Positions 23,469 to 37,946 of a DNA stretch of 64,000 nucleotides are shown piece after piece. The translations under genes were made by a program, and so were the position numbers. How positions within the stretch are numbered: position 1 is the first letter of the stretch; each line of letters opens with the position of its first letter. The DNA is from Escherichia coli (GTDB lineage: Bacteria > Pseudomonadota > Gammaproteobacteria > Enterobacterales > Enterobacteriaceae), in assembly GCF_003334405.1 (NCBI RefSeq), contig NZ_QOWM01000001.1. One strand, given 5' to 3'. A model generated the notes under the pieces. It was given only the letters and a program-made list of their open reading frames with translations, searched no databases and was not told where the DNA came from.

Positions 23469-24599
23469 ATGTTCCAGTTATCCGTACAGGACATCCATCC
23501 GGGCGAAAAGGCCGGAGACAAAGAAGAGGCGATTCGCCAGGTCGCTGCGGCGCTGGTGCAGGCCGGTAATGTAGCAGAAGGCTACGTCAATGGCATGCTG
23601 GCGCGCGAACAGCAAACCTCAACGTTCCTCGGCAATGGTATTGCTATTCCACACGGCACTACCGACACCCGCGATCAGGTGCTGAAAACCGGCGTTCAGG
23701 TATTTCAGTTCCCGGAAGGCGTCACCTGGGGTGACGGTCAGGTAGCGTACGTGGCAATCGGTATTGCTGCCAGCTCGGATGAACATCTGGGCCTGCTACG
23801 CCAGCTGACCCACGTACTGAGCGATGATTCCGTTGCTGAACAACTGAAGTCAGCAACAACAGCAGAAGAACTTCGCGCATTACTGATGGGCGAAAAGCAG
23901 AGTGAGCAGCTGAAGCTCGACAACGAAATGCTGACACTGGATATCGTCGCCAGCGATCTGCTGACTCTTCAGGCGCTGAACGCTGCGCGTCTGAAAGAGG
24001 CGGGGGCAGTTGACGCCACTTTCGTCACCAAAGCCATCAATGAACAACCGCTGAATCTCGGACAGGGTATCTGGCTGAGCGATAGCGCCGAAGGCAATCT
24101 GCGTAGCGCGATTGCGGTAAGCCGTGCGGCAAATGCTTTTGATGTGGACGGCGAAACGGCAGCCATGCTGGTGAGTGTGGCGATGAATGACGATCAGCCC
24201 ATCGCGGTTCTTAAGCGTCTCGCTGATTTATTGCTCGACAATAAAGCTGACCGCTTGCTGAAAGCGGATGCGGCAACGTTGCTGGCGCTGCTGACCAGCG
24301 ATGATGCGCCGACCGACGACGTGTTAAGCGCGGAGTTTGTGGTGCGCAATGAACACGGCCTGCATGCTCGTCCAGGTACCATGCTGGTCAATACCATTAA
24401 ACAATTTAACAGTGATATTACCGTGACAAACCTTGATGGTACCGGCAAACCGGCAAACGGACGTAGTCTGATGAAAGTTGTGGCACTTGGCGTTAAGAAA
24501 GGTCATCGCCTACGCTTTACCGCCCAGGGTGCAGATGCTGAACAGGCGCTGAAAGCAATCGGCGACGCTATCGCTGCTGGTCTTGGGGAGGGCGCATAA
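23469..24599 (+). CDS. fruB: Fructose PTS multiphosphoryl transfer protein (EIIA-Fru / FPr)
   Basis: 376-aa ORF with an EIIA domain and a C-terminal HPr-like domain (GLHARPG). Confidence 0.95.
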
Positions 24600-25537
24600 T
24601 GAGCAGACGTGTTGCTACTATCACCCTTAATCCGGCTTATGACCTTGTTGGTTTCTGCCCGGAAATTGAACGCGGCGAAGTGAACCTGGTGAAAACCACC
24701 GGTCTGCATGCGGCGGGTAAAGGCATCAACGTGGCCAAAGTATTAAAAGACCTGGGAATTGATGTCACCGTTGGCGGCTTCCTGGGTAAAGACAATCAGG
24801 ATGGTTTTCAGCAACTGTTCAGCGAGCTGGGCATTGCCAACCGTTTCCAGGTTGTACAGGGGCGCACCCGAATTAACGTTAAGCTGACGGAAAAAGACGG
24901 CGAAGTGACCGACTTCAACTTCTCGGGTTTTGAAGTCACCCCCGCCGACTGGGAACGCTTTGTGACTGATTCTCTGAGCTGGCTCGGTCAGTTCGATATG
25001 GTCTGTGTCAGCGGAAGCTTACCGTCAGGCGTCAGCCCGGAAGCGTTCACCGACTGGATGACTCGCCTGCGTAGTCAGTGTCCTTGCATTATCTTTGATA
25101 GTAGCCGTGAAGCGTTAGTAGCAGGTTTGAAAGCGGCACCGTGGCTGGTGAAACCTAACCGCCGCGAGCTGGAAATCTGGGCAGGCCGTAAACTGCCTGA
25201 AATGAAAGATGTGATTGAAGCTGCACATGCGCTACGTGAACAAGGCATCGCGCATGTTGTTATTTCACTGGGTGCCGAAGGCGCGCTTTGGGTTAATGCC
25301 TCCGGCGAATGGATCGCCAAACCACCGTCAGTCGATGTCGTAAGCACCGTTGGCGCAGGGGATTCTATGGTTGGTGGCCTGATTTATGGCTTGCTGATGC
25401 GTGAATCCAGTGAACACACACTGCGTCTGGCGACAGCTGTTGCAGCCCTGGCGGTAAGTCAAAGCAATGTGGGTATTACCGATCGTCCGCAGTTGGCCGC
25501 AATGATGGCGCGCGTCGACTTACAACCTTTTAACTGA
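24599..25537 (+). CDS. fruK: 1-phosphofructokinase
   Basis: 312-aa PfkB-family ORF; ATGA start/stop overlap with fruB. Confidence 0.95.
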   Translation: MSRRVATITLNPAYDLVGFCPEIERGEVNLVKTTGLHAAGKGINVAKVLKDLGIDVTVGGFLGKDNQDGFQQLFSELGIANRFQVVQGRTRINVKLTEKDGEVTDFNFSGFEVTPADWERFVTDSLSWLGQFDMVCVSGSLPSGVSPEAFTDWMTRLRSQCPCIIFDSSREALVAGLKAAPWLVKPNRRELEIWAGRKLPEMKDVIEAAHALREQGIAHVVISLGAEGALWVNASGEWIAKPPSVDVVSTVGAGDSMVGGLIYGLLMRESSEHTLRLATAVAALAVSQSNVGITDRPQLAAMMARVDLQPFN

Positions 25538-25553
25538 CAGCAGGAGAGGCATA

Positions 25554-27245
25554 ATGAAAACGCTGCTGATTATTGACGCTAATCTCGGTCAGGCACGCGC
25601 CTATATGGCGAAGACCCTGCTGGGCGCGGCGGCGCGAAAAGCAAAACTGGAAATCATCGACAATCCGAACGACGCTGAAATGGCGATTGTTCTCGGTGAT
25701 TCCATCCCGAACGACAGCGCGCTGAACGGTAAAAATGTCTGGCTGGGCGATATTTCCCGGGCAGTTGCGCACCCTGAGCTGTTCCTGAGTGAAGCCAAAG
25801 GCCATGCGAAACCTTACACTGCGCCGGTCGCTGCGACAGCACCAGTTGCCGCCAGCGGTCCGAAACGCGTAGTTGCGGTGACTGCTTGCCCGACTGGCGT
25901 AGCACACACCTTTATGGCGGCTGAAGCCATTGAAACCGAAGCGAAAAAACGTGGCTGGTGGGTGAAAGTTGAAACCCGTGGTTCTGTTGGCGCGGGTAAT
26001 GCAATCACTCCCGAAGAAGTCGCAGCAGCGGATCTGGTGATTGTGGCGGCAGATATCGAAGTGGATCTGGCGAAATTTGCTGGTAAACCGATGTATCGTA
26101 CCTCTACCGGTCTGGCGCTGAAGAAAACCGCGCAGGAACTGGATAAAGCGGTTGCTGAAGCAACGCCGTATGAACCGGCGGGCAAAGCTCAAACGGCGAC
26201 CACTGAAAGTAAGAAAGAGAGTGCAGGCGCATACCGTCACTTGCTGACGGGCGTTTCTTACATGCTGCCGATGGTCGTTGCAGGTGGTCTGTGTATCGCG
26301 CTTTCTTTTGCTTTTGGTATCGAAGCGTTTAAAGAGCCGGGTACGTTGGCTGCGGCGCTGATGCAGATTGGTGGTGGTTCAGCCTTTGCGCTGATGGTGC
26401 CGGTACTGGCAGGTTATATTGCCTTTTCCATTGCCGATCGTCCGGGCCTCACTCCGGGTCTGATTGGCGGTATGCTGGCGGTCAGCACCGGTTCTGGCTT
26501 CATTGGTGGTATTATTGCGGGCTTCCTGGCTGGTTACATTGCGAAGTTAATCAGTACGCAATTGAAACTGCCACAGAGTATGGAGGCGCTGAAACCGATC
26601 CTGATCATTCCGCTAATTTCCAGTCTGGTGGTCGGTCTGGCGATGATCTACCTGATCGGTAAACCAGTTGCTGGCATTCTCGAAGGGCTGACTCACTGGC
26701 TGCAGACCATGGGGACTGCGAATGCGGTTCTGCTGGGGGCGATCCTCGGTGGCATGATGTGTACTGACATGGGCGGTCCGGTAAACAAAGCAGCGTACGC
26801 ATTCGGTGTGGGTCTGCTGAGTACTCAAACCTATGGCCCGATGGCGGCGATTATGGCGGCAGGTATGGTGCCACCGCTGGCAATGGGTCTGGCAACAATG
26901 GTGGCGCGTCGCAAATTCGACAAAGCGCAGCAGGAAGGTGGCAAAGCCGCTCTGGTATTGGGACTGTGCTTCATTTCGGAAGGTGCAATTCCGTTTGCTG
27001 CTCGTGATCCGATGCGTGTGCTGCCGTGCTGTATCGTGGGTGGGGCGCTGACTGGCGCAATCTCAATGGCGATTGGTGCGAAACTGATGGCACCGCACGG
27101 TGGTCTGTTTGTTCTGCTGATCCCTGGCGCTATTACGCCGGTATTGGGTTACCTGGTAGCAATTATTGCCGGTACGCTGGTGGCGGGTTTGGCCTATGCC
27201 TTCCTGAAACGTCCGGAAGTGGACGCAGTAGCGAAAGCAGCGTAA
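25554..27245 (+). CDS. fruA: PTS fructose-specific EIIB'BC component
   Basis: 563-aa ORF with IIB domains and a C-terminal membrane IIC domain. Confidence 0.95.
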   Translation: MKTLLIIDANLGQARAYMAKTLLGAAARKAKLEIIDNPNDAEMAIVLGDSIPNDSALNGKNVWLGDISRAVAHPELFLSEAKGHAKPYTAPVAATAPVAASGPKRVVAVTACPTGVAHTFMAAEAIETEAKKRGWWVKVETRGSVGAGNAITPEEVAAADLVIVAADIEVDLAKFAGKPMYRTSTGLALKKTAQELDKAVAEATPYEPAGKAQTATTESKKESAGAYRHLLTGVSYMLPMVVAGGLCIALSFAFGIEAFKEPGTLAAALMQIGGGSAFALMVPVLAGYIAFSIADRPGLTPGLIGGMLAVSTGSGFIGGIIAGFLAGYIAKLISTQLKLPQSMEALKPILIIPLISSLVVGLAMIYLIGKPVAGILEGLTHWLQTMGTANAVLLGAILGGMMCTDMGGPVNKAAYAFGVGLLSTQTYGPMAAIMAAGMVPPLAMGLATMVARRKFDKAQQEGGKAALVLGLCFISEGAIPFAARDPMRVLPCCIVGGALTGAISMAIGAKLMAPHGGLFVLLIPGAITPVLGYLVAIIAGTLVAGLAYAFLKRPEVDAVAKAA

Positions 27246-27402
27246 TAAAAGGTGTGTTACAGGGCAGAAATTTCCTGTCCTGTAACATTTGATGAGCGCA
27301 AAGAGAATGACCGGTTTGTGAATGTAATTTTATGAATTTAAATGGTTTTATCTTTCAGTAGAAACTTCAAACGTTCATCAAACACTCAGGTTATTTCCTC
27401 AA

Positions 27403-27429
27403 GGGCAGATTATTTTCTGCCCTTTTTTA
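27403..27429 (+). terminator. Rho-independent terminator downstream of fruBKA
   Basis: Stem gggcaga / tctgccc followed by tttttt. Confidence 0.7.
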
Positions 27430-27667
27430 TTGTTCTGTTCTGTGCATCCCGTCACAAATTCCTCGCTTTTGTAATTCAGGCATTTAATCGCATTTTGTGA
27501 GCCTGCTCAAATCTGCCCATTTTGCCTCTCTGGCGGTAATTTACTTTACGTAAAACATGCATACTATGAGCACATGTTTAAATATGAACACATGTTTAAA
27601 CCGTCTTTGCAGTATCTATATTCTTGTGGATTGACAGGGTTGGTAATTTTTTACCAGAGGACGTGCT

Positions 27668-28609
27668 ATGCGCGAAAAGGATTATGTCGTAATTATAGGT
27701 TCGGCGAATATTGATGTCGCCGGATATTCACATGAATCATTAAATTATGCGGATTCAAATCCAGGTAAAATAAAATTTACGCCTGGTGGAGTAGGGCGCA
27801 ATATTGCACAAAACCTGGCGTTGCTGGGTAACAAAGCCTGGCTACTGAGCGCCGTAGGCAGTGATTTTTATGGTCAATCGCTGCTAACGCAAACCAATCA
27901 ATCTGGCGTTTATGTCGATAAATGCCTGATTGTGCCGGGAGAAAATACGTCGAGTTATTTATCATTACTCGATAATACCGGTGAAATGCTGGTTGCTATA
28001 AATGACATGAATATTAGCAACGCTATTACAGCTGAATATCTCGCACAGCACGGTGAATTTATTCAGAGGGCAAAGGTCATTGTCGCGGACTGTAATATCA
28101 GTGAAGAGGCACTGGCATGGATTCTGGATAATGCCGCCAACGTACCCGTATTTGTCGATCCGGTTTCGGCATGGAAATGTGTCAAAGTGCGCGACCGTCT
28201 AAATCAGATCCACACTCTCAAGCCAAACCGCCTTGAAGCGGAAACCCTGAGTGGGATTGCGCTGTCAGGGCGTGAAGATGTGGCAAAAGTTGCTGCCTGG
28301 TTCCATCAACATGGCCTGAACCGACTGGTATTGAGCATGGGCGGCGACGGCGTTTATTACAGCGATATCAGCGGTGAAAGTGGCTGGTCTGCGCCGATCA
28401 AAACCAATGTTATTAATGTTACCGGAGCGGGCGATGCCATGATGGCGGGACTTGCTTCGTGTTGGGTAGACGGAATGCCGTTTGCCGAATCTGTTCGTTT
28501 CGCACAGGGATGTTCGTCAATGGCGCTCTCCTGTGAATACACCAATAACCCCGATTTATCGATTGCCAACGTTATATCGTTAGTGGAGAACGCAGAATGT
28601 CTGAATTAA
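27668..28609 (+). CDS. psuK: Pseudouridine kinase (PfkB family)
   Basis: 313-aa ORF with GG dipeptide and GAGD motifs. Confidence 0.92.
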   Translation: MREKDYVVIIGSANIDVAGYSHESLNYADSNPGKIKFTPGGVGRNIAQNLALLGNKAWLLSAVGSDFYGQSLLTQTNQSGVYVDKCLIVPGENTSSYLSLLDNTGEMLVAINDMNISNAITAEYLAQHGEFIQRAKVIVADCNISEEALAWILDNAANVPVFVDPVSAWKCVKVRDRLNQIHTLKPNRLEAETLSGIALSGREDVAKVAAWFHQHGLNRLVLSMGGDGVYYSDISGESGWSAPIKTNVINVTGAGDAMMAGLASCWVDGMPFAESVRFAQGCSSMALSCEYTNNPDLSIANVISLVENAECLN

Positions 28610-29535
28610 AAATTTCCCCTGAATTATTACAAATTTCCCCGGAAGTGCAGGACGCTTTAAAAAACAAAAAACCGGTTGTGGCGCTGGAATCGACCATTAT
28701 TTCTCACGGGATGCCGTTCCCACAAAATGCCCAGACCGCAATTGAAGTTGAAGAAACTATTCGTAAACAGGGCGCTGTACCTGCCACGATCGCCATTATT
28801 GGCGGCGTGATGAAAGTGGGGTTAAGCAAAGAAGAAATTGAATTACTGGGTCGTGAAGGGCATAACGTGACCAAAGTTAGTCGTCGCGATTTACCTTTTG
28901 TTGTTGCCGCCGGAAAAAATGGCGCAACCACTGTGGCTTCAACGATGATTATTGCGGCGCTTGCCGGAATTAAAGTATTTGCCACCGGGGGAATTGGTGG
29001 TGTGCATCGCGGGGCGGAACATACCTTCGATATTTCTGCCGATTTGCAAGAACTGGCAAATACTAATGTCACCGTTGTTTGTGCCGGGGCGAAATCTATT
29101 CTCGATTTAGGATTAACCACTGAGTATTTAGAAACCTTCGGTGTGCCGTTAATTGGCTATCAGACTAAAGCGCTGCCTGCGTTTTTCTGCCGCACCAGCC
29201 CGTTTGACGTCAGCATTCGTCTCGACAGCGCCAGCGAAATTGCCCGTGCAATGGCGGTGAAATGGCAAAGCGGTCTGAACGGTGGCCTCGTGGTAGCGAA
29301 CCCGATCCCGGAACAGTTTGCTATGCCGGAACACACTATCAATGCGGCGATCGATCAGGCGGTAGCTGAAGCTGAAGCTCAGGGAGTCATTGGTAAAGAA
29401 AGTACGCCATTCCTGCTGGCGCGCGTTGCTGAACTGACCGGCGGTGACAGCCTGAAATCCAACATCCAGCTGGTGTTCAACAACGCCATTCTGGCGAGCG
29501 AAATTGCCAAAGAATATCAGCGTCTCGCGGGTTAA
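28597..29535 (+). CDS. psuG: Pseudouridine-5'-phosphate glycosidase
   Basis: 312-aa ORF; 13-bp overlap with psuK. Confidence 0.92.
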   Translation: MSELKISPELLQISPEVQDALKNKKPVVALESTIISHGMPFPQNAQTAIEVEETIRKQGAVPATIAIIGGVMKVGLSKEEIELLGREGHNVTKVSRRDLPFVVAAGKNGATTVASTMIIAALAGIKVFATGGIGGVHRGAEHTFDISADLQELANTNVTVVCAGAKSILDLGLTTEYLETFGVPLIGYQTKALPAFFCRTSPFDVSIRLDSASEIARAMAVKWQSGLNGGLVVANPIPEQFAMPEHTINAAIDQAVAEAEAQGVIGKESTPFLLARVAELTGGDSLKSNIQLVFNNAILASEIAKEYQRLAG

Positions 29536-29628
29536 TTTCTGACGGGCAGAAAGCCGTCGCCCGTACTCATCAAGCATACCAAAACCTGGCGCTGACGCCG
29601 GGTTTACCGGCATGAAGGGAAAATCATT

Positions 29629-30879
29629 ATGGATATAATGAGAAGTGTTGTGGGGATGGTGGTGTTACTGGCAATAGCATTTCTGTTGTCAGTGAATAAA
29701 AAGAGCATCAGTTTGCGCACGGTTGGAGCCGCACTGCTGCTGCAAATCGCTATTGGTGGCATCATGCTCTACTTCCCACCGGGAAAATGGGCAGTAGAAC
29801 AGGCGGCATTAGGCGTTCATAAAGTGATGTCTTACAGTGATGCCGGTAGCGCCTTCATTTTTGGTTCGCTGGTTGGGCCGAAAATGGATGTCCTGTTTGA
29901 CGGTGCGGGTTTTATCTTCGCCTTTCGCGTACTTCCGGCGATTATTTTCGTTACTGCGCTCATCAGTCTGCTGTACTACATTGGCGTGATGGGGCTGCTG
30001 ATTCGCATCCTTGGCAGCATTTTCCAGAAAGCCCTCAACATCAGCAAAATCGAATCTTTTGTTGCGGTTACTACTATTTTCCTCGGGCAAAATGAGATCC
30101 CGGCGATCGTTAAACCGTTTATCGATCGCATGAATCGCAACGAGTTGTTTACCGCAATTTGTAGCGGGATGGCGTCCATTGCTGGTTCGATGATGATTGG
30201 TTATGCCGGAATGGGCGTACCAATTGACTACCTGTTAGCGGCATCGCTGATGGCGATCCCTGGCGGGATTTTGTTTGCACGTATTCTTAGCCCGGCAACC
30301 GAGCCTTCGCAGGTCACATTTGAAAATCTGTCGTTCAGCGAAACGCCGCCAAAAAGCTTTATCGAAGCGGCGGCGAGCGGTGCGATGACCGGGCTAAAAA
30401 TCGCCGCTGGTGTGGCGACGGTGGTAATGGCGTTTGTCGCAATTATTGCGCTGATCAACGGCATTATCGGCGGAATTGGCGGCTGGTTTGGTTTCGCCAA
30501 TGCCTCTCTGGAAAGTATTTTTGGCTATGTGCTGGCACCGCTGGCGTGGATCATGGGTGTGGACTGGAGTGATGCCAATCTTGCGGGTAGCCTGATTGGG
30601 CAGAAACTGGCGATTAACGAATTCGTCGCTTACCTGAGTTTCTCCCCATACCTGCAAACGGGCGGCACGCTGGAAGTGAAAACCATTGCGATTATCTCCT
30701 TTGCGCTTTGTGGTTTTGCTAACTTTGGTTCTATCGGTGTTGTCGTTGGCGCATTTTCGGCTATTTCGCCAAAACGCGCGCCGGAAATCGCCCAGCTTGG
30801 TTTACGGGCGCTGGCAGCAGCAACGCTTTCCAACCTGATGAGTGCGACTATTGCCGGGTTCTTTATTGGTCTGGCGTAA
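29629..30879 (+). CDS. psuT: Putative pseudouridine/nucleoside transporter, concentrative nucleoside transporter (CNT) family
   Basis: 416-aa membrane protein; paralogue of nupX at 32819. Confidence 0.92.
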   Translation: MDIMRSVVGMVVLLAIAFLLSVNKKSISLRTVGAALLLQIAIGGIMLYFPPGKWAVEQAALGVHKVMSYSDAGSAFIFGSLVGPKMDVLFDGAGFIFAFRVLPAIIFVTALISLLYYIGVMGLLIRILGSIFQKALNISKIESFVAVTTIFLGQNEIPAIVKPFIDRMNRNELFTAICSGMASIAGSMMIGYAGMGVPIDYLLAASLMAIPGGILFARILSPATEPSQVTFENLSFSETPPKSFIEAAASGAMTGLKIAAGVATVVMAFVAIIALINGIIGGIGGWFGFANASLESIFGYVLAPLAWIMGVDWSDANLAGSLIGQKLAINEFVAYLSFSPYLQTGGTLEVKTIAIISFALCGFANFGSIGVVVGAFSAISPKRAPEIAQLGLRALAAATLSNLMSATIAGFFIGLA

Positions 30880-31609: not shown

Positions 31610-31777
31610 CAATTGCTGCTTAAGATCATTATTGTGGATTTCTTTCACGATGTTTATCCGCTATGAGATTTCTCATATTTAGCATACGTACGCTGTTGTT
31701 AAGATTCAATCATCGGCCCGGTCGAATTTTCTTTGCTGTAGAAAAAATAACGCAACTGGAAACAGAGGAAATAAACA

Positions 31778-32818: not shown

Positions 32819-34138
32819 ATGGATGTCATGAGAAGTGTTCTGGGAATGGTGGTATTGCTGACGATTGCGTTTTTACTGTCAGTAAACAAGAAGAAGATCA
32901 GCCTGCGTACCGTTGGCGCGGCGTTAGTGTTACAGGTCGTGATTGGCGGCATTATGCTTTGGTTACCGCCAGGGCGTTGGGTCGCTGAAAAAGTCGCTTT
33001 TGGCGTGCATAAAGTGATGGCGTACAGCGACGCGGGTAGCGCATTTATCTTCGGTTCTCTGGTCGGACCGAAAATGGATACCTTATTTGATGGTGCAGGA
33101 TTTATCTTTGGTTTCAGGGTGTTACCGGCAATTATCTTCGTCACCGCGCTGGTGAGTATTCTCTACTACATCGGTGTGATGGGGATTTTAATTCGAATTC
33201 TCGGCGGTATCTTCCAGAAAGCATTAAATATCAGCAAGATCGAGTCATTCGTCGCGGTCACCACCATTTTCCTCGGGCAAAACGAAATTCCGGCAATCGT
33301 CAAACCCTTTATCGATCGTCTGAATCGCAATGAATTATTTACAGCGATTTGTAGTGGCATGGCCTCGATTGCTGGTTCGACAATGATTGGTTACGCCGCA
33401 CTGGGCGTGCCTGTGGAATATCTGCTGGCGGCATCATTAATGGCGATCCCTGGCGGGATCTTGTTTGCCCGCCTGTTAAGCCCGGCAACGGAATCTTCGC
33501 AGGTTTCCTTTAATAACCTCTCTTTCACCGAAACACCGCCAAAAAGCATTATTGAAGCCGCTGCGACAGGGGCAATGACCGGGCTGAAAATCGCCGCAGG
33601 TGTGGCAACAGTGGTGATGGCATTTGTTGCAATAATTGCGTTGATTAACGGTATTATCGGCGGCGTTGGTGGCTGGTTTGGTTTTGAACATGCCTCGCTG
33701 GAGTCCATTTTAGGTTACCTGCTGGCTCCACTGGCGTGGGTGATGGGTGTGGACTGGAGTGATGCGAATCTTGCCGGGAGTTTGATTGGACAGAAACTGG
33801 CAATAAATGAATTTGTCGCTTATCTCAATTTCTCACCCTATCTGCAAACGGCTGGCACTCTCGATGCTAAAACTGTGGCGATTATTTCCTTCGCGTTGTG
33901 CGGTTTCGCTAACTTTGGTTCTATCGGGGTGGTGGTGGGGGCGTTTTCTGCGGTTGCGCCACACCGTGCGCCGGAAATCGCCCAGCTTGGTTTACGGGCG
34001 CTGTCGCGGAAACTGTATCCTTCAAGAAAGCTATATACCAGGCCCGCCATAAAACCATCGTCAGCACCAAAACTGTCTACTGTCGTATGCGCTGGCGCGG
34101 TCAGCAAAAATTGTTCTCCATCCTTTTCGCTGCAATAA
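32819..34138 (+). CDS. nupX: CNT-family nucleoside transporter NupX with an aberrant 3' end (last ~21 expected codons replaced by 44 unrelated codons); possibly a pseudogene
   Basis: Colinear with paralogue PsuT to residue 395 (...PEIAQLGLRAL), then diverges; the 3' extension is antisense to yeiI coding sequence. Confidence 0.8.
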   Translation: MDVMRSVLGMVVLLTIAFLLSVNKKKISLRTVGAALVLQVVIGGIMLWLPPGRWVAEKVAFGVHKVMAYSDAGSAFIFGSLVGPKMDTLFDGAGFIFGFRVLPAIIFVTALVSILYYIGVMGILIRILGGIFQKALNISKIESFVAVTTIFLGQNEIPAIVKPFIDRLNRNELFTAICSGMASIAGSTMIGYAALGVPVEYLLAASLMAIPGGILFARLLSPATESSQVSFNNLSFTETPPKSIIEAAATGAMTGLKIAAGVATVVMAFVAIIALINGIIGGVGGWFGFEHASLESILGYLLAPLAWVMGVDWSDANLAGSLIGQKLAINEFVAYLNFSPYLQTAGTLDAKTVAIISFALCGFANFGSIGVVVGAFSAVAPHRAPEIAQLGLRALSRKLYPSRKLYTRPAIKPSSAPKLSTVVCAGAVSKNCSPSFSLQ

Positions 34139-34983
34139 ACTGACTCATCGGGCAAATAAACAAACAGTTGCTGAACACCTTGCTGATGCAATGCATTCAC
34201 TGCGGTATTACGGTCAGCATCGCTGGTGATCGCCTGTCCCCATAAAATTTCCAGCTCCGGTAAAGTGGGTTTCAGGGTGTGAATATGCGCCAGCCAGTGT
34301 TTGATTTTGCCCGCTTTGAATTCTGAAACGGTATCGACAAACACCGGGATTTCATCAGCGAGGGTAAAGACCCATTCCAGCGCCTCGGCTGTCAGGTTGC
34401 AATCAGCCAGTACCACGCCCGCATGACGAAGTAAATCGCGCGACCCGTTCAGTAGTTGCGGTGTCAACTGTTCCAGCAGATGGGTATCGTTAATCGCCAG
34501 CACGGTTTGATCGTCTCGATTGGCAATTGCCAGATACGTCGATGTGCTTTGACCATGCAAACGAACGCAGCCGGAGACATTCACGCCGGCACGGCGCGTT
34601 TCTTCCAGGAGCATTTCGCCATAAAAGTCATCGCCAATCACTGAAAGCAAATGGACGTCACGGCCTAACAGCGCCAGATTGTGGGCGATGTTGCGTCCCA
34701 CGCCGCCCGCTGAGCAATGAATTGTACCGGGATGAGAAGCCGATTGCGGGTAACGGATATCCGCCATCCCGCGAATATCCATATTGATTGTCCCCACCAC
34801 TACGCAGTATTCCTGCTCGGTGAGAATGTAACCTTTGCCTTTAATCCGGCCTTTGCGCATTAAATCCATAATATGCGCCGCAACGCGCGAACGGCTGATT
34901 TGCAGCATGTCCGCAATTTCGTTCTGCTGAATCAGCGGGTTACGCCGTAAAATTGCAAGGATCTCCTTTTCCCGGTTATTCAT
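33838..34983 (-). CDS. yeiI: HTH plus PfkB-family sugar kinase YeiI with an aberrant 3' end; possibly a pseudogene
   Basis: N-terminal HTH and PfkB kinase core up to ...FGADDGFMAGLVYSFLEGYSFRDSA; the final ~52 codons are antisense to nupX and lack the conserved PfkB C-terminal segment. Confidence 0.8.
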   Translation of the reverse strand: MNNREKEILAILRRNPLIQQNEIADMLQISRSRVAAHIMDLMRKGRIKGKGYILTEQEYCVVVGTINMDIRGMADIRYPQSASHPGTIHCSAGGVGRNIAHNLALLGRDVHLLSVIGDDFYGEMLLEETRRAGVNVSGCVRLHGQSTSTYLAIANRDDQTVLAINDTHLLEQLTPQLLNGSRDLLRHAGVVLADCNLTAEALEWVFTLADEIPVFVDTVSEFKAGKIKHWLAHIHTLKPTLPELEILWGQAITSDADRNTAVNALHQQGVQQLFVYLPDESVYCSEKDGEQFLLTAPAHTTVDSFGADDGFMAGLVYSFLEGYSFRDSARKPSWAISGARCGATAENAPTTTPIEPKLAKPHNAKEIIATVLASRVPAVCR

Positions 34984-37064: not shown

Positions 37065-37946
37065 ATGCACATCACCCTCCGGCAGTTGGAAGTTTTTGCA
37101 GAAGTATTGAAAAGTGGATCAACCACCCAGGCGTCGGTGATGCTGGCGTTGTCGCAATCAGCAGTGAGCGCAGCCTTGACCGACCTGGAAGGGCAGCTTG
37201 GCGTGCAACTGTTTGATCGCGTGGGGAAAAGACTGGTTGTTAATGAACACGGGCGGCTGCTCTATCCGCGTGCGTTGGCATTGCTTGAACAGGCGGTTGA
37301 AATCGAACAACTGTTTCGCGAAGACAACGGCGCGATTCGTATCTATGCCAGTAGTACCATCGGTAACTACATTCTGCCTGCAGTTATCGCCCGTTATCGC
37401 CATGATTATCCGCAGTTGCCGATTGAACTTAGCGTTGGGAATAGCCAGGACGTGATGCAAGCGGTGCTGGATTTCCGCGTTGATATTGGCTTTATTGAAG
37501 GACCGTGCCACAGCACTGAAATCATTTCTGAACCGTGGCTGGAAGACGAGCTGGTGGTTTTCGCCGCGCCGACTTCGCCGTTGGCCCGTGGTCCGGTCAC
37601 CTTAGAACAGCTGGCCGCTGCGCCGTGGATCCTGCGTGAACGCGGTTCCGGCACGCGGGAGATTGTCGATTATCTGTTGCTGTCACATTTACCGAAGTTT
37701 GAGATGGCGATGGAATTAGGTAACTCCGAGGCAATCAAACATGCGGTGCGTCATGGGTTGGGAATTAGTTGCCTGTCGCGACGTGTGATTGAAGATCAAT
37801 TGCAGGCAGGCACATTAAGTGAAGTTGCGGTCCCTCTGCCGCGCCTGATGCGTACGTTGTGGCGTATACATCATCGGCAAAAACACCTTTCCAACGCGCT
37901 ACGGCGCTTTCTGGACTATTGCGATCCCGCAAATGTGCCGCGTTAA
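37065..37946 (+). CDS. yeiE: LysR-type transcriptional regulator YeiE
   Basis: 293-aa ORF with an N-terminal LysR HTH. Confidence 0.92.

Follow-up and report, generated by a model that had tools for sequence, protein, structure and literature searches.

How transcription of the psuK-psuG-psuT operon (psuKGT) is controlled in Escherichia coli is a question raised by a short repetitive stretch that lies upstream of psuK, the gene for pseudouridine kinase. The window considered here is the whole 64,000-nucleotide stretch of DNA that was analyzed (E. coli contig NZ_QOWM01000001.1, assembly GCF_003334405.1). It is K-12-like and carries fruB-fruK-fruA at 23469-27245, followed by a 422-base-pair (bp) fruA-psuK spacer identical to that of MG1655; a position in K-12 NC_000913.3 equals 2286964 minus the window position. 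The initial annotation of this DNA described three copies of a catgttt motif in the spacer, regarded them as the operator of a multimeric regulator and knew of no regulator of psuKGT. In the literature searched, no regulator of psuKGT, including psuK under its older name yeiC, no evidence for CRP at psuK and no study of YeiI was found, in agreement with the last of these statements. The idea of an operator for an oligomeric regulator is supported by conservation, although the binders proposed at the time do not fit. The repeats very probably form a protein operator, as judged from their symmetry and conservation, and its binding protein is probably YeiI, a helix-turn-helix (HTH) protein with a PfkB kinase domain that has been described to date as an uncharacterized sugar kinase or a hypothetical transcription factor.

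Tandem palindromes at a conserved psuK promoter

The strings noticed at first are present in the window, cacatgtttaaa at 27571-27582 and again at 27589-27600 and taaaacatgcat at 27551-27562, and their distance of 68-117 bp to the ATG of psuK at 27668 agrees with the earlier estimate. The direct copies are part of longer head-to-tail 18-mers, TATGAGCACATGTTTAAA (27565-27582) and TATGAACACATGTTTAAA (27583-27600), which are identical at 17 of 18 positions, and each repeat unit is itself a 5-2-5 palindrome. Repetition and symmetry thus exceed chance: in 300 shuffles of the 422-bp spacer, the best direct 18-mer match within 40 bp never surpassed 14 of 18. The inverted copy has only seven bases, AAACATG (27553-27559), in common with the reverse complement of the repeat and is therefore marginal when taken alone.

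A peptide-pattern scan for PsuK, with one genome per species, yielded 11 orthologous loci from Escherichia spp., E. albertii, Buttiauxella, Citrobacter and a metagenome-assembled genome of Raoultella. Alignment A1 comprises 12 psuK upstream regions from five genera, and a divergent second E. coli allele was added later. In A1, five islands of invariant columns stand out amid diverged sequence, namely TTGTGA-N6-TCAwATCT, ATTTAC, TAnnAT, A.CA..TGTT and GAACA..TG.T, of which the last two correspond to the direct repeats. The repeat unit is a 12-bp palindrome, RAACA-NN-TGTTY, and the centers of the two boxes are 18 bp apart. Across species the unit appears as GAACA-CA-TGTTT, GAACA-TG-TGTTT, GAACA-CG-TGTTT or GAACA-TA-TGTTC; the central dinucleotide flips between CA and TG (CG, TA, GA and AG also occur), often to its own reverse complement, and the 5-bp arms are kept. 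The spacer between the boxes likewise varies across orthologs, whereas the arms do not. Retention of the arms together with a changing center is the signature of a two-fold symmetric protein site. The repeat of the initial annotation is therefore real, but catgttt was the wrong unit, since CATG partly coincides with the variable center. The claim of a triple copy was overstated as well, because the third copy keeps only the AAACA half-site and the following GC, out of register with the boxes; A1 columns A84-C87 and G90-C91 are invariant there and A88 is nearly so, CATG becomes CACG, CAAG or CCTG in other genera, and G27559A occurs as natural variation within E. coli.

The second E. coli allele retains the same promoter and box elements, and natural single-nucleotide polymorphisms (SNPs) of E. 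coli, compared over a 116-bp core in four divergent strains, avoid the box arms, both promoter hexamers and the TGTGA and TCAAA halves of the upstream palindrome. Conservation amid diverging flanks thus holds for A1 (n = 12), for the second allele and for nine more distant loci. The idea of an operator was to be given up if the repeats were not conserved in orthologous psuK promoters; both direct copies are kept in every one examined, and they recur before the psu operons of distant gammaproteobacteria.

The boxes abut a conserved pair of promoter hexamers, TTTACT-16-TACTAT. This pair scores 8/12 (4/6 + 4/6), just below the cut-off of a consensus scan that lists only a downstream candidate, TTTAAA-16-TATATT at 27595-27622, with 9/12. 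From the position of the -10 hexamer, transcription would start at about 27574-27575, so that the boxes would span approximately -6 to +24, a placement suggestive of a repressor. Box 1 immediately follows the -10 element in Affinibrenneria and Enterobacter too, and in Aliivibrio it follows a -10-like hexamer that was assigned by eye. In the Yersinia group, CTTTACT is kept at the -35 position, so that the whole promoter-operator module looks ancestral. The consensus of CRP is TGTGA-N6-TCACA, and class I sites are centered near -61.5, -71.5, -82.5 or -92.5. The first island of A1 contains a candidate site that matches this consensus at 9 of 10 positions, its assignment to CRP being by consensus; TTGTGA and TCAwATCT (27495-27514) are invariant or nearly so in the 12 orthologous promoters.

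Laboratory evolution bears on this promoter. In published evolution experiments, the mutation psuK/fruA 2257444 A>C rose in most mouse-gut lineages, and a psuK-promoter A>C allele has been published as arising in three long-term stationary-phase populations. The coordinates of the mouse study are those of NC_000913.2, which lie 1978 below NC_000913.3 in this region, as checked via atoS A229T in the same table. The recurrent SNP accordingly maps to window position 27542 as T>G on the psuK strand (A>C on the K-12 plus strand), converting TTTACT to TTGACT and raising the -35 match from 4/6 to 5/6; the window itself carries the wild-type T. This is the only recurrent adaptive change in the fruA-psuK spacer. 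It is an up-mutation of the -35 hexamer of the conserved promoter, by which expression would be expected to increase, and its position on the conserved -35 indicates that the upstream promoter is the one that matters.

Linkage of YeiI to the psu operons

A translated search (tblastn) revealed that, in E. albertii, Citrobacter, Buttiauxella and Raoultella, psuT is followed not by yeiL, which adjoins psuT on the opposite strand in E. coli, but by a paralog of PsuK with 32-36% identity. Its E. coli counterpart is yeiI (b2160), three genes further on. In the contigs around ten YeiI homologs, psuG adjoins the HTH_24-PfkB gene in all ten loci, and the boxes precede the psu operon in nine, so that regulator gene, site and target co-occur. 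Seven loci (Yersinia, Serratia, Xenorhabdus, Photorhabdus, Pasteurella, Shewanella and Aliivibrio) have an HTH-PfkB-psuG(-psuT) operon that begins with the HTH-PfkB gene and contains no other kinase, and in Enterobacter and Affinibrenneria yeiI converges on psuT-psuG-psuK. The first psu gene is preceded by tandem boxes in Pasteurella (CAAACAAAAGTTGAAAAATAAACAGGTGTTGA), Shewanella (TAAACAAAAGTTTGCCTTGCAAACATATGTTTG), Aliivibrio (CAAACAATAGTTAGTTTAGTGAACATATGTTTG), Photorhabdus (CAAACGTATGTTTAAAAACAAACAAGTGCCC), Affinibrenneria (TAAACAAGTGTTCGATATTGGTCATATGTTTA) and Enterobacter (CAAACAGATGTTTGTTTGCAAACATAAGCTC), as are the psu operons of Yersinia and Serratia. When every position of about 290 kb of fetched DNA was scored out of 20 for two RAACANNTGTTY boxes 18 or 19 bp apart, a score of at least 17 was reached by 22 of 23 psu promoters and, elsewhere, by a single site within yeiE. 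The 22 include those of Pasteurella, Shewanella, Aliivibrio and Photorhabdus, whose flanks cannot be aligned with E. coli.

The proteins encoded by these loci show a corresponding pattern. The winged-helix segment is 65-91% identical among ten proteins; that of YeiI is 65-72% identical to those of the fused proteins, with 38-48% for the kinase domain. For E. coli PsuK, identity is 53-60% to the kinase domains of the fusions found in Yersinia, Serratia, Xenorhabdus, Photorhabdus and Pasteurella, and 37.5% to YeiI. PsuK contacts pseudouridine through S30, N143 and K170 (PMC9061257), and equivalents of these residues are present in all 11 PsuK, YeiI and fused proteins compared. The catalytic GAGD motif is intact in PsuK and in all fused proteins, and GADD or GADE occurs only in three proteins of the YeiI branch. 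These identities and the GAGD pattern fit a duplication by which one bifunctional kinase-repressor gave rise to an enzyme and a separate regulator. The HTH-PfkB fusion is found in no solved structure, the nearest being that of E. coli pseudouridine kinase, which covers residues 55-359 only, and matches of the winged-helix segment to MarR/Lrp-type families among Protein Data Bank sequences were marginal (E 0.1-0.4). To our knowledge, and from the literature searched, no member of the PfkB family or fold has been characterized as a DNA-binding protein.

Several points weigh against YeiI as the binding protein and against its role as a simple repressor. The psu promoter of Xenorhabdus has no high-scoring tandem pair, and the loci are phylogenetically related, amounting to about 11 independent lineages rather than 23. 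No box lies upstream of yeiI itself, the type B or C loci included, and yeiI is kept in all E. coli genomes. The search for further E. coli boxes covered the 64-kb window, leaving room for a wider regulon or another binder. Within that window, GAACANNTGTTY with at most one mismatch gave 15 matches against 8 expected, all those outside psuK being in coding sequence (yejB/E, yeiE); TGTTY-N6-RAACA gave 9 against 9 expected, and no psu-type box was seen at the rihB, yeiL or nupX promoters. As for the predicted activation, psuK is absent from the two genome-wide papers on CRP, which used SELEX (systematic evolution of ligands by exponential enrichment) and footprints. Furthermore, the mouse-gut and stationary-phase studies find knock-outs of frlR, srlR, dgoR, glpR and kdgR and report none in yeiI; if YeiI were a simple repressor, loss of function in yeiI should be a large mutational target, yet it is unreported. 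This would be understandable if the inducer were present and the weak promoter limiting, or YeiI could be something other than a simple repressor.

Table 1. Coordinates of the promoter elements, boxes and genes discussed, in window numbering
Feature	Position	Strand	Remarks
Intrinsic-terminator-like hairpin and T-run after fruA	27401..27430	+	Same hairpin 3' of fruA in Buttiauxella and Enterobacter
Predicted CRP site, TGTGA-gcctgc-TCAAA	27496..27511	+	Center 27503.5; about -70.5 or -71.5 from the presumed start, a class I position
-35 hexamer of the psuK promoter, TTTACT	27540..27545	+	ATTTAC invariant in A1
Inverted copy of the initial annotation	27551..27562	+	Within the 16-bp -35/-10 spacer; AAACA (27553-27557) and GC (27559-27560) conserved
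-10 hexamer, TACTAT	27562..27567	+	TAnnAT invariant in 12 orthologs; constant 16-bp spacing to TTTACT
Box 1, GAGCA-ca-TGTTT	27568..27579		About -6 to +6 of the presumed start; arms kept, center variable
Box 2, GAACA-ca-TGTTT	27586..27597		About +13 to +24; GAACA invariant in A1; tandem score 19/20
Stem-loop TTGGTAA-tttt-TTACCAG in the 5' untranslated region	27640..27657	+	Abuts the Shine-Dalgarno GAGGA; kept in 9 orthologs
psuK, psuG, psuT (proposed regulated operon, 27668..30879)	27668-28609, 28597-29535, 29629-30879	+	Open reading frames; identity to MG1655 b2166-b2164
yeiI, proposed regulator	33838..34983	-	Pfam HTH_24 at residues 1-48 (E = 2.5e-10) and PfkB domain; weak MarR/MarR_2/AsnC matches

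Some further observations concern the boxes and the HTH-PfkB genes. The tandem pair inside yeiE, GAACAGGCGGTT..GAACAACTGTTT at 37287-37316, scores 18/20, and the promoter region of yeiH-nfo-yeiI is about 250-350 bp away; a score of 16 is reached at the orthologous position in Enterobacter (locus L017, about 4643-4672). Coding constraint or chance might account for the pair, or it might be a distal YeiI site. In the Yersinia group, a further palindrome, longer but sharing the core (AACCAAACAcTTGTTTGGTT), lies far upstream, at about -250 to -285 relative to the first psu gene (L018 about 7748-7770, with equivalents in L019, L020 and L021); it is perfect in Yersinia and might serve as an auxiliary operator. 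In the HTH-PfkB genes of Yersinia and Serratia, the ATG given in the annotation (position 8001 in both L018 and L019) falls within box 1 (ACACATGTTTAAAAAC) and lengthens the protein by about 9-10 residues that are missing from the other orthologs, and in Photorhabdus the ACACATGTTTAAAAAC string lies upstream, out of frame. For Yersinia and Serratia, the true starts thus probably lie downstream of the annotated ones.

Compared with MG1655, 281 bp (about 2252690-2252970 of NC_000913.3) are missing from the window between two copies of ACGGGCGCTG, with the junction at 33994-34009. The deletion removes the 3' ends of the convergent nupX and yeiI genes together with the spacer between them; the reading frames run on and overlap, so that nupX (32819-34138, plus strand) encodes 439 amino acids vs. 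416 and yeiI 381 vs. 362. Among the matches listed from 5,426 complete E. coli genomes, all are split in two at the junction, and none carries the deletion. Should YeiI be the repressor of psuK, the strain of the window may be derepressed. The fruA-psuK spacer and psuK also exist within E. coli as a second allele class that is E. albertii-like, with 88% PsuK protein identity (NCTC9040, L014 4677-5132; MS20659, L016). This allele has an extra repeat-like insert after fruA and keeps the CRP-like site, both hexamers, both boxes and the hairpin. By megablast, approximately 1,200 of the 5,426 genomes are without a K-12-type psuK and probably carry this second allele. In MS20659, nupX is a remnant; strain BL12 has an IS1 in psuK/psuG; and in strain ER1709 only the last 60 bp of the spacer match, beside fruB, which suggests a local rearrangement or deletion.

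Alternative explanations and neighboring features

The boxes might be a genuine operator for a factor other than YeiI, encoded elsewhere and common to gammaproteobacteria. Such a factor is compatible with the limited span of the site search and with the missing autoregulatory box before yeiI noted above, and nothing physically ties YeiI to box DNA. However, across Enterobacterales, Pasteurellaceae, Shewanellaceae and Vibrionaceae, no regulator gene other than the HTH-PfkB gene accompanies the boxes, and a Buttiauxella locus that has yeiL-rihB-nupX between nfo and fruA has neither psuKGT nor yeiI there. This explanation appears unlikely. The binding boxes of ArgR, KdgR, TorR, NadR, EvgA, PuuR and GlpR bear some resemblance to the repeats, but each matches the E. 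coli letters alone or has the wrong spacing, instead of matching the conserved columns.

Since the boxes would be transcribed, they might act as RNA, box 1 pairing with box 2 in a 5'-terminal stem-loop that stabilizes or attenuates the psuK mRNA. RNAalifold does predict an 11-pair hairpin between the boxes at -8.7 kcal/mol, but such pairing is automatic between direct copies of a palindrome. Moreover, the covariation term is only -0.12, two central pairs are broken in K-12 (CA and AC), and the arm letters are kept from Vibrionaceae to Escherichia beyond what mere complementarity would need, which makes this function very unlikely. A different RNA element, the stem-loop next to the ribosome site (Table 1), is conserved: in a trimmed RNAalifold alignment of nine sequences, 98% of cells are paired and one pair covaries (CG in six, UA in two and UG in one). 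K-12 has T:A at this pair and E. albertii has T.G, with C:G in Citrobacter, Buttiauxella, Enterobacter and the second E. coli allele. The stem-loop may act on translation or on the stability of the mRNA. Read by eye as a sigma-54 element, TGGCAA-N4/5-TTGCC in the same place was rejected, as the GC is AC in K-12 and the spacing is one base short; a sigma-54 start there was also rejected, as the Shine-Dalgarno sequence would be lost. A search of 26900-27900 against Rfam at a permissive threshold gave two sub-threshold chance matches and nothing else.

An activator site for the downstream promoter has also to be considered, in which box 2 would be centered near -37 relative to a -35 of TTTAAA (27595-27600) and a -10 of TATATT (27617-27622). 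This promoter is preferred by the consensus scan (9/12 vs. 8/12). However, 27601-27635 is unconserved between genera, the spacer of one Escherichia locus (L003) is shorter by an 11-bp deletion, and both the adaptive SNP and the conserved hexamers are those of the upstream promoter. An activator role at this position is thus very improbable.

Of the candidates named in the initial annotation, YeiL, which belongs to the CRP/FNR family, is encoded beside psuT in E. coli, and the inner arms of the boxes, which are the most conserved ones, can be read as TGTTT-N6-GAACA in a CRP-like 5-6-5 geometry. Nevertheless, the psu loci of E. albertii, Citrobacter, Buttiauxella, Raoultella and Enterobacter contain no yeiL although the boxes are conserved there. 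YeiL homologs are widespread and are always divergently paired with rihB-nupX, even without psu genes, as in Buttiauxella sp. and Hafnia alvei, where neither psu genes nor yeiI are nearby. The rihB/yeiL spacer contains another palindrome, TATGA-N6-TCATA, and no psu-type box, and the psuK promoter is without this palindrome. Binding of YeiL to the repeats is hence highly improbable. The palindrome itself, TATGAGATTTCTCATA at 31662-31677, has CRP-type geometry and is the only exact match in the window; TATGA-GAAATC-TCATA is perfect in the rihB/yeiL spacers of E. coli, Buttiauxella and Hafnia (L030, L031, about 4960-4985), and it is likely the YeiL box of the yeiL-rihB-nupX cassette. The independence of YeiL and rihB-nupX from psu genes, together with a palindrome of their own, reveals that E. 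coli carries two nested cassettes, yeiI / nupX-rihB-yeiL / psuT-psuG-psuK, and the psu boxes belong to the outer one.

The other early candidates, among which YeiI was not named, fare no better as box binders. For CRP, a separate site is predicted about 70 bp upstream. A CytR operator, consisting of half-sites flanked by two CRP sites, was rejected, as neither TTGCAA nor GTTGCATT occurs in 27246-27667, where only one CRP-like site is present. The boxes presumably bear no resemblance to the 23-bp AT-rich palindrome of NagC/Mlc. A recent, functionless slippage duplication, to which the nearly identical head-to-tail E. coli copies might point, is practically negligible as an explanation because at least 11 lineages share the two-box layout although its sequences have diverged.

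The remainder of the fruA-psuK spacer contains two terminator-like hairpins, at 27255-27287 and 27401-27430, with AGGGCAGA..TCTGCCCT in common. A T-run is present only at the second, and its counterpart in Buttiauxella and Enterobacter is a single hairpin directly after fruA; the approximately 110 bp between the two hairpins look like an Escherichia-specific insertion. The second hairpin should insulate psuK from fruBKA read-through. For CTCTGGCGGTAAT, at 27528-27540, 12 of 13 positions agree with the OR1/OL1 string of phage lambda, CTCTGGCGGTGAT, in Escherichia sequences only and probably by chance.

A model for psuKGT control

With YeiI as the probable binder, the following regulation can be proposed. 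YeiI dimers would bind the tandem boxes, which lie over the presumed start of a weak sigma-70 promoter and the bases right after it, and bound YeiI would block RNA polymerase and keep psuKGT off. Pseudouridine or a derivative, such as its phosphate, would bind the kinase-like domain of YeiI and cause release from the boxes, and CRP would activate from the predicted class I site at about -71. The chance that this scheme of start-site repression, relief by ligand and help from CRP is correct in full is roughly even. In evolutionary terms, the ancestor would have been a bifunctional pseudouridine kinase and autorepressor acting on tandem AAACA-NN-TGTTT boxes, and a single fused HTH-kinase would still do both jobs in Yersinia, Serratia, Photorhabdus, Pasteurella, Shewanella and Aliivibrio. 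In the Escherichia/Citrobacter/Enterobacter lineage, a duplication would have led to the HTH-less enzyme PsuK, which kept the promoter and operator, and to the mainly regulatory paralog YeiI, whose catalytic motif drifted to GADD/GADE.

The proposed arrangement resembles lac-type promoters in having a predicted CRP site about 70 bp upstream, hexamers below consensus (4/6 and 4/6), an operator over the start and early transcribed region, and a single-base promoter-up mutation that is selected when the substrate matters. In contrast to the 21-bp main operator and distant auxiliaries of lac, psuK has two adjacent 12-bp palindromes 18 bp apart, its candidate regulator is not of the LacI family, and its steps are predicted from sequence. 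Short palindromes are used by winged-helix dimers of the MarR and Lrp/AsnC families, such as marO sites I and II and archaeal FL11 (TGAAA-N3-TTTCA). YeiI and its proposed boxes share with them the winged helix (HTH_24), 5-bp half-sites 2 bp apart and two adjoining sites over the core promoter, whereas the effector domain of YeiI has a PfkB kinase fold instead of the MarR helix bundle or the RAM domain. BirA, NadR and PutA likewise combine an N-terminal DNA-binding domain with an enzyme of the same pathway, whose ligand could set operator occupancy, and the fused HTH-PfkB protein is the only kinase of its operon in the seven loci; the difference lies in the PfkB family of the kinase and in the apparent split of the two functions between paralogs in E. 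coli. NagC and Mlc of the ROK family also have a kinase-like ligand sensor behind an N-terminal HTH and coexist with HTH-less enzymatic paralogs, but their fold is ROK/actin-like, not PfkB/ribokinase-like as in YeiI, and the operator sequence differs. The CytR and DeoR regulons similarly place nucleoside salvage under CRP control, as predicted here for psuK, although the psuK spacer has neither the CytR half-sites and second CRP site nor a DeoR-like 16-bp palindrome. That YeiI and its fused relatives would be the first PfkB-family kinases shown to act as transcription factors, split by duplication, is about as likely as not.

If true, the model would give a function to the K-12 y-gene yeiI and would account for the near-silence of psuKGT in K-12 and for the repeated selection at its -35 hexamer in the gut and in long-term stationary phase. 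The psuK/fruA A>C mutation, among the most reproducible adaptive mutations in E. coli gut and stationary-phase experiments, receives a molecular reading as the change of the -35 from TTTACT to TTGACT. The two nested nucleoside cassettes can be told apart, yeiL going with rihB-nupX and yeiI with psuKGT. A defined 30-bp operator is paired with a defined protein and a likely inducer, which makes the pairing testable, and control of psuKGT would be of practical interest for engineered strains that produce pseudouridine, in which psuK and psuG are manipulated.

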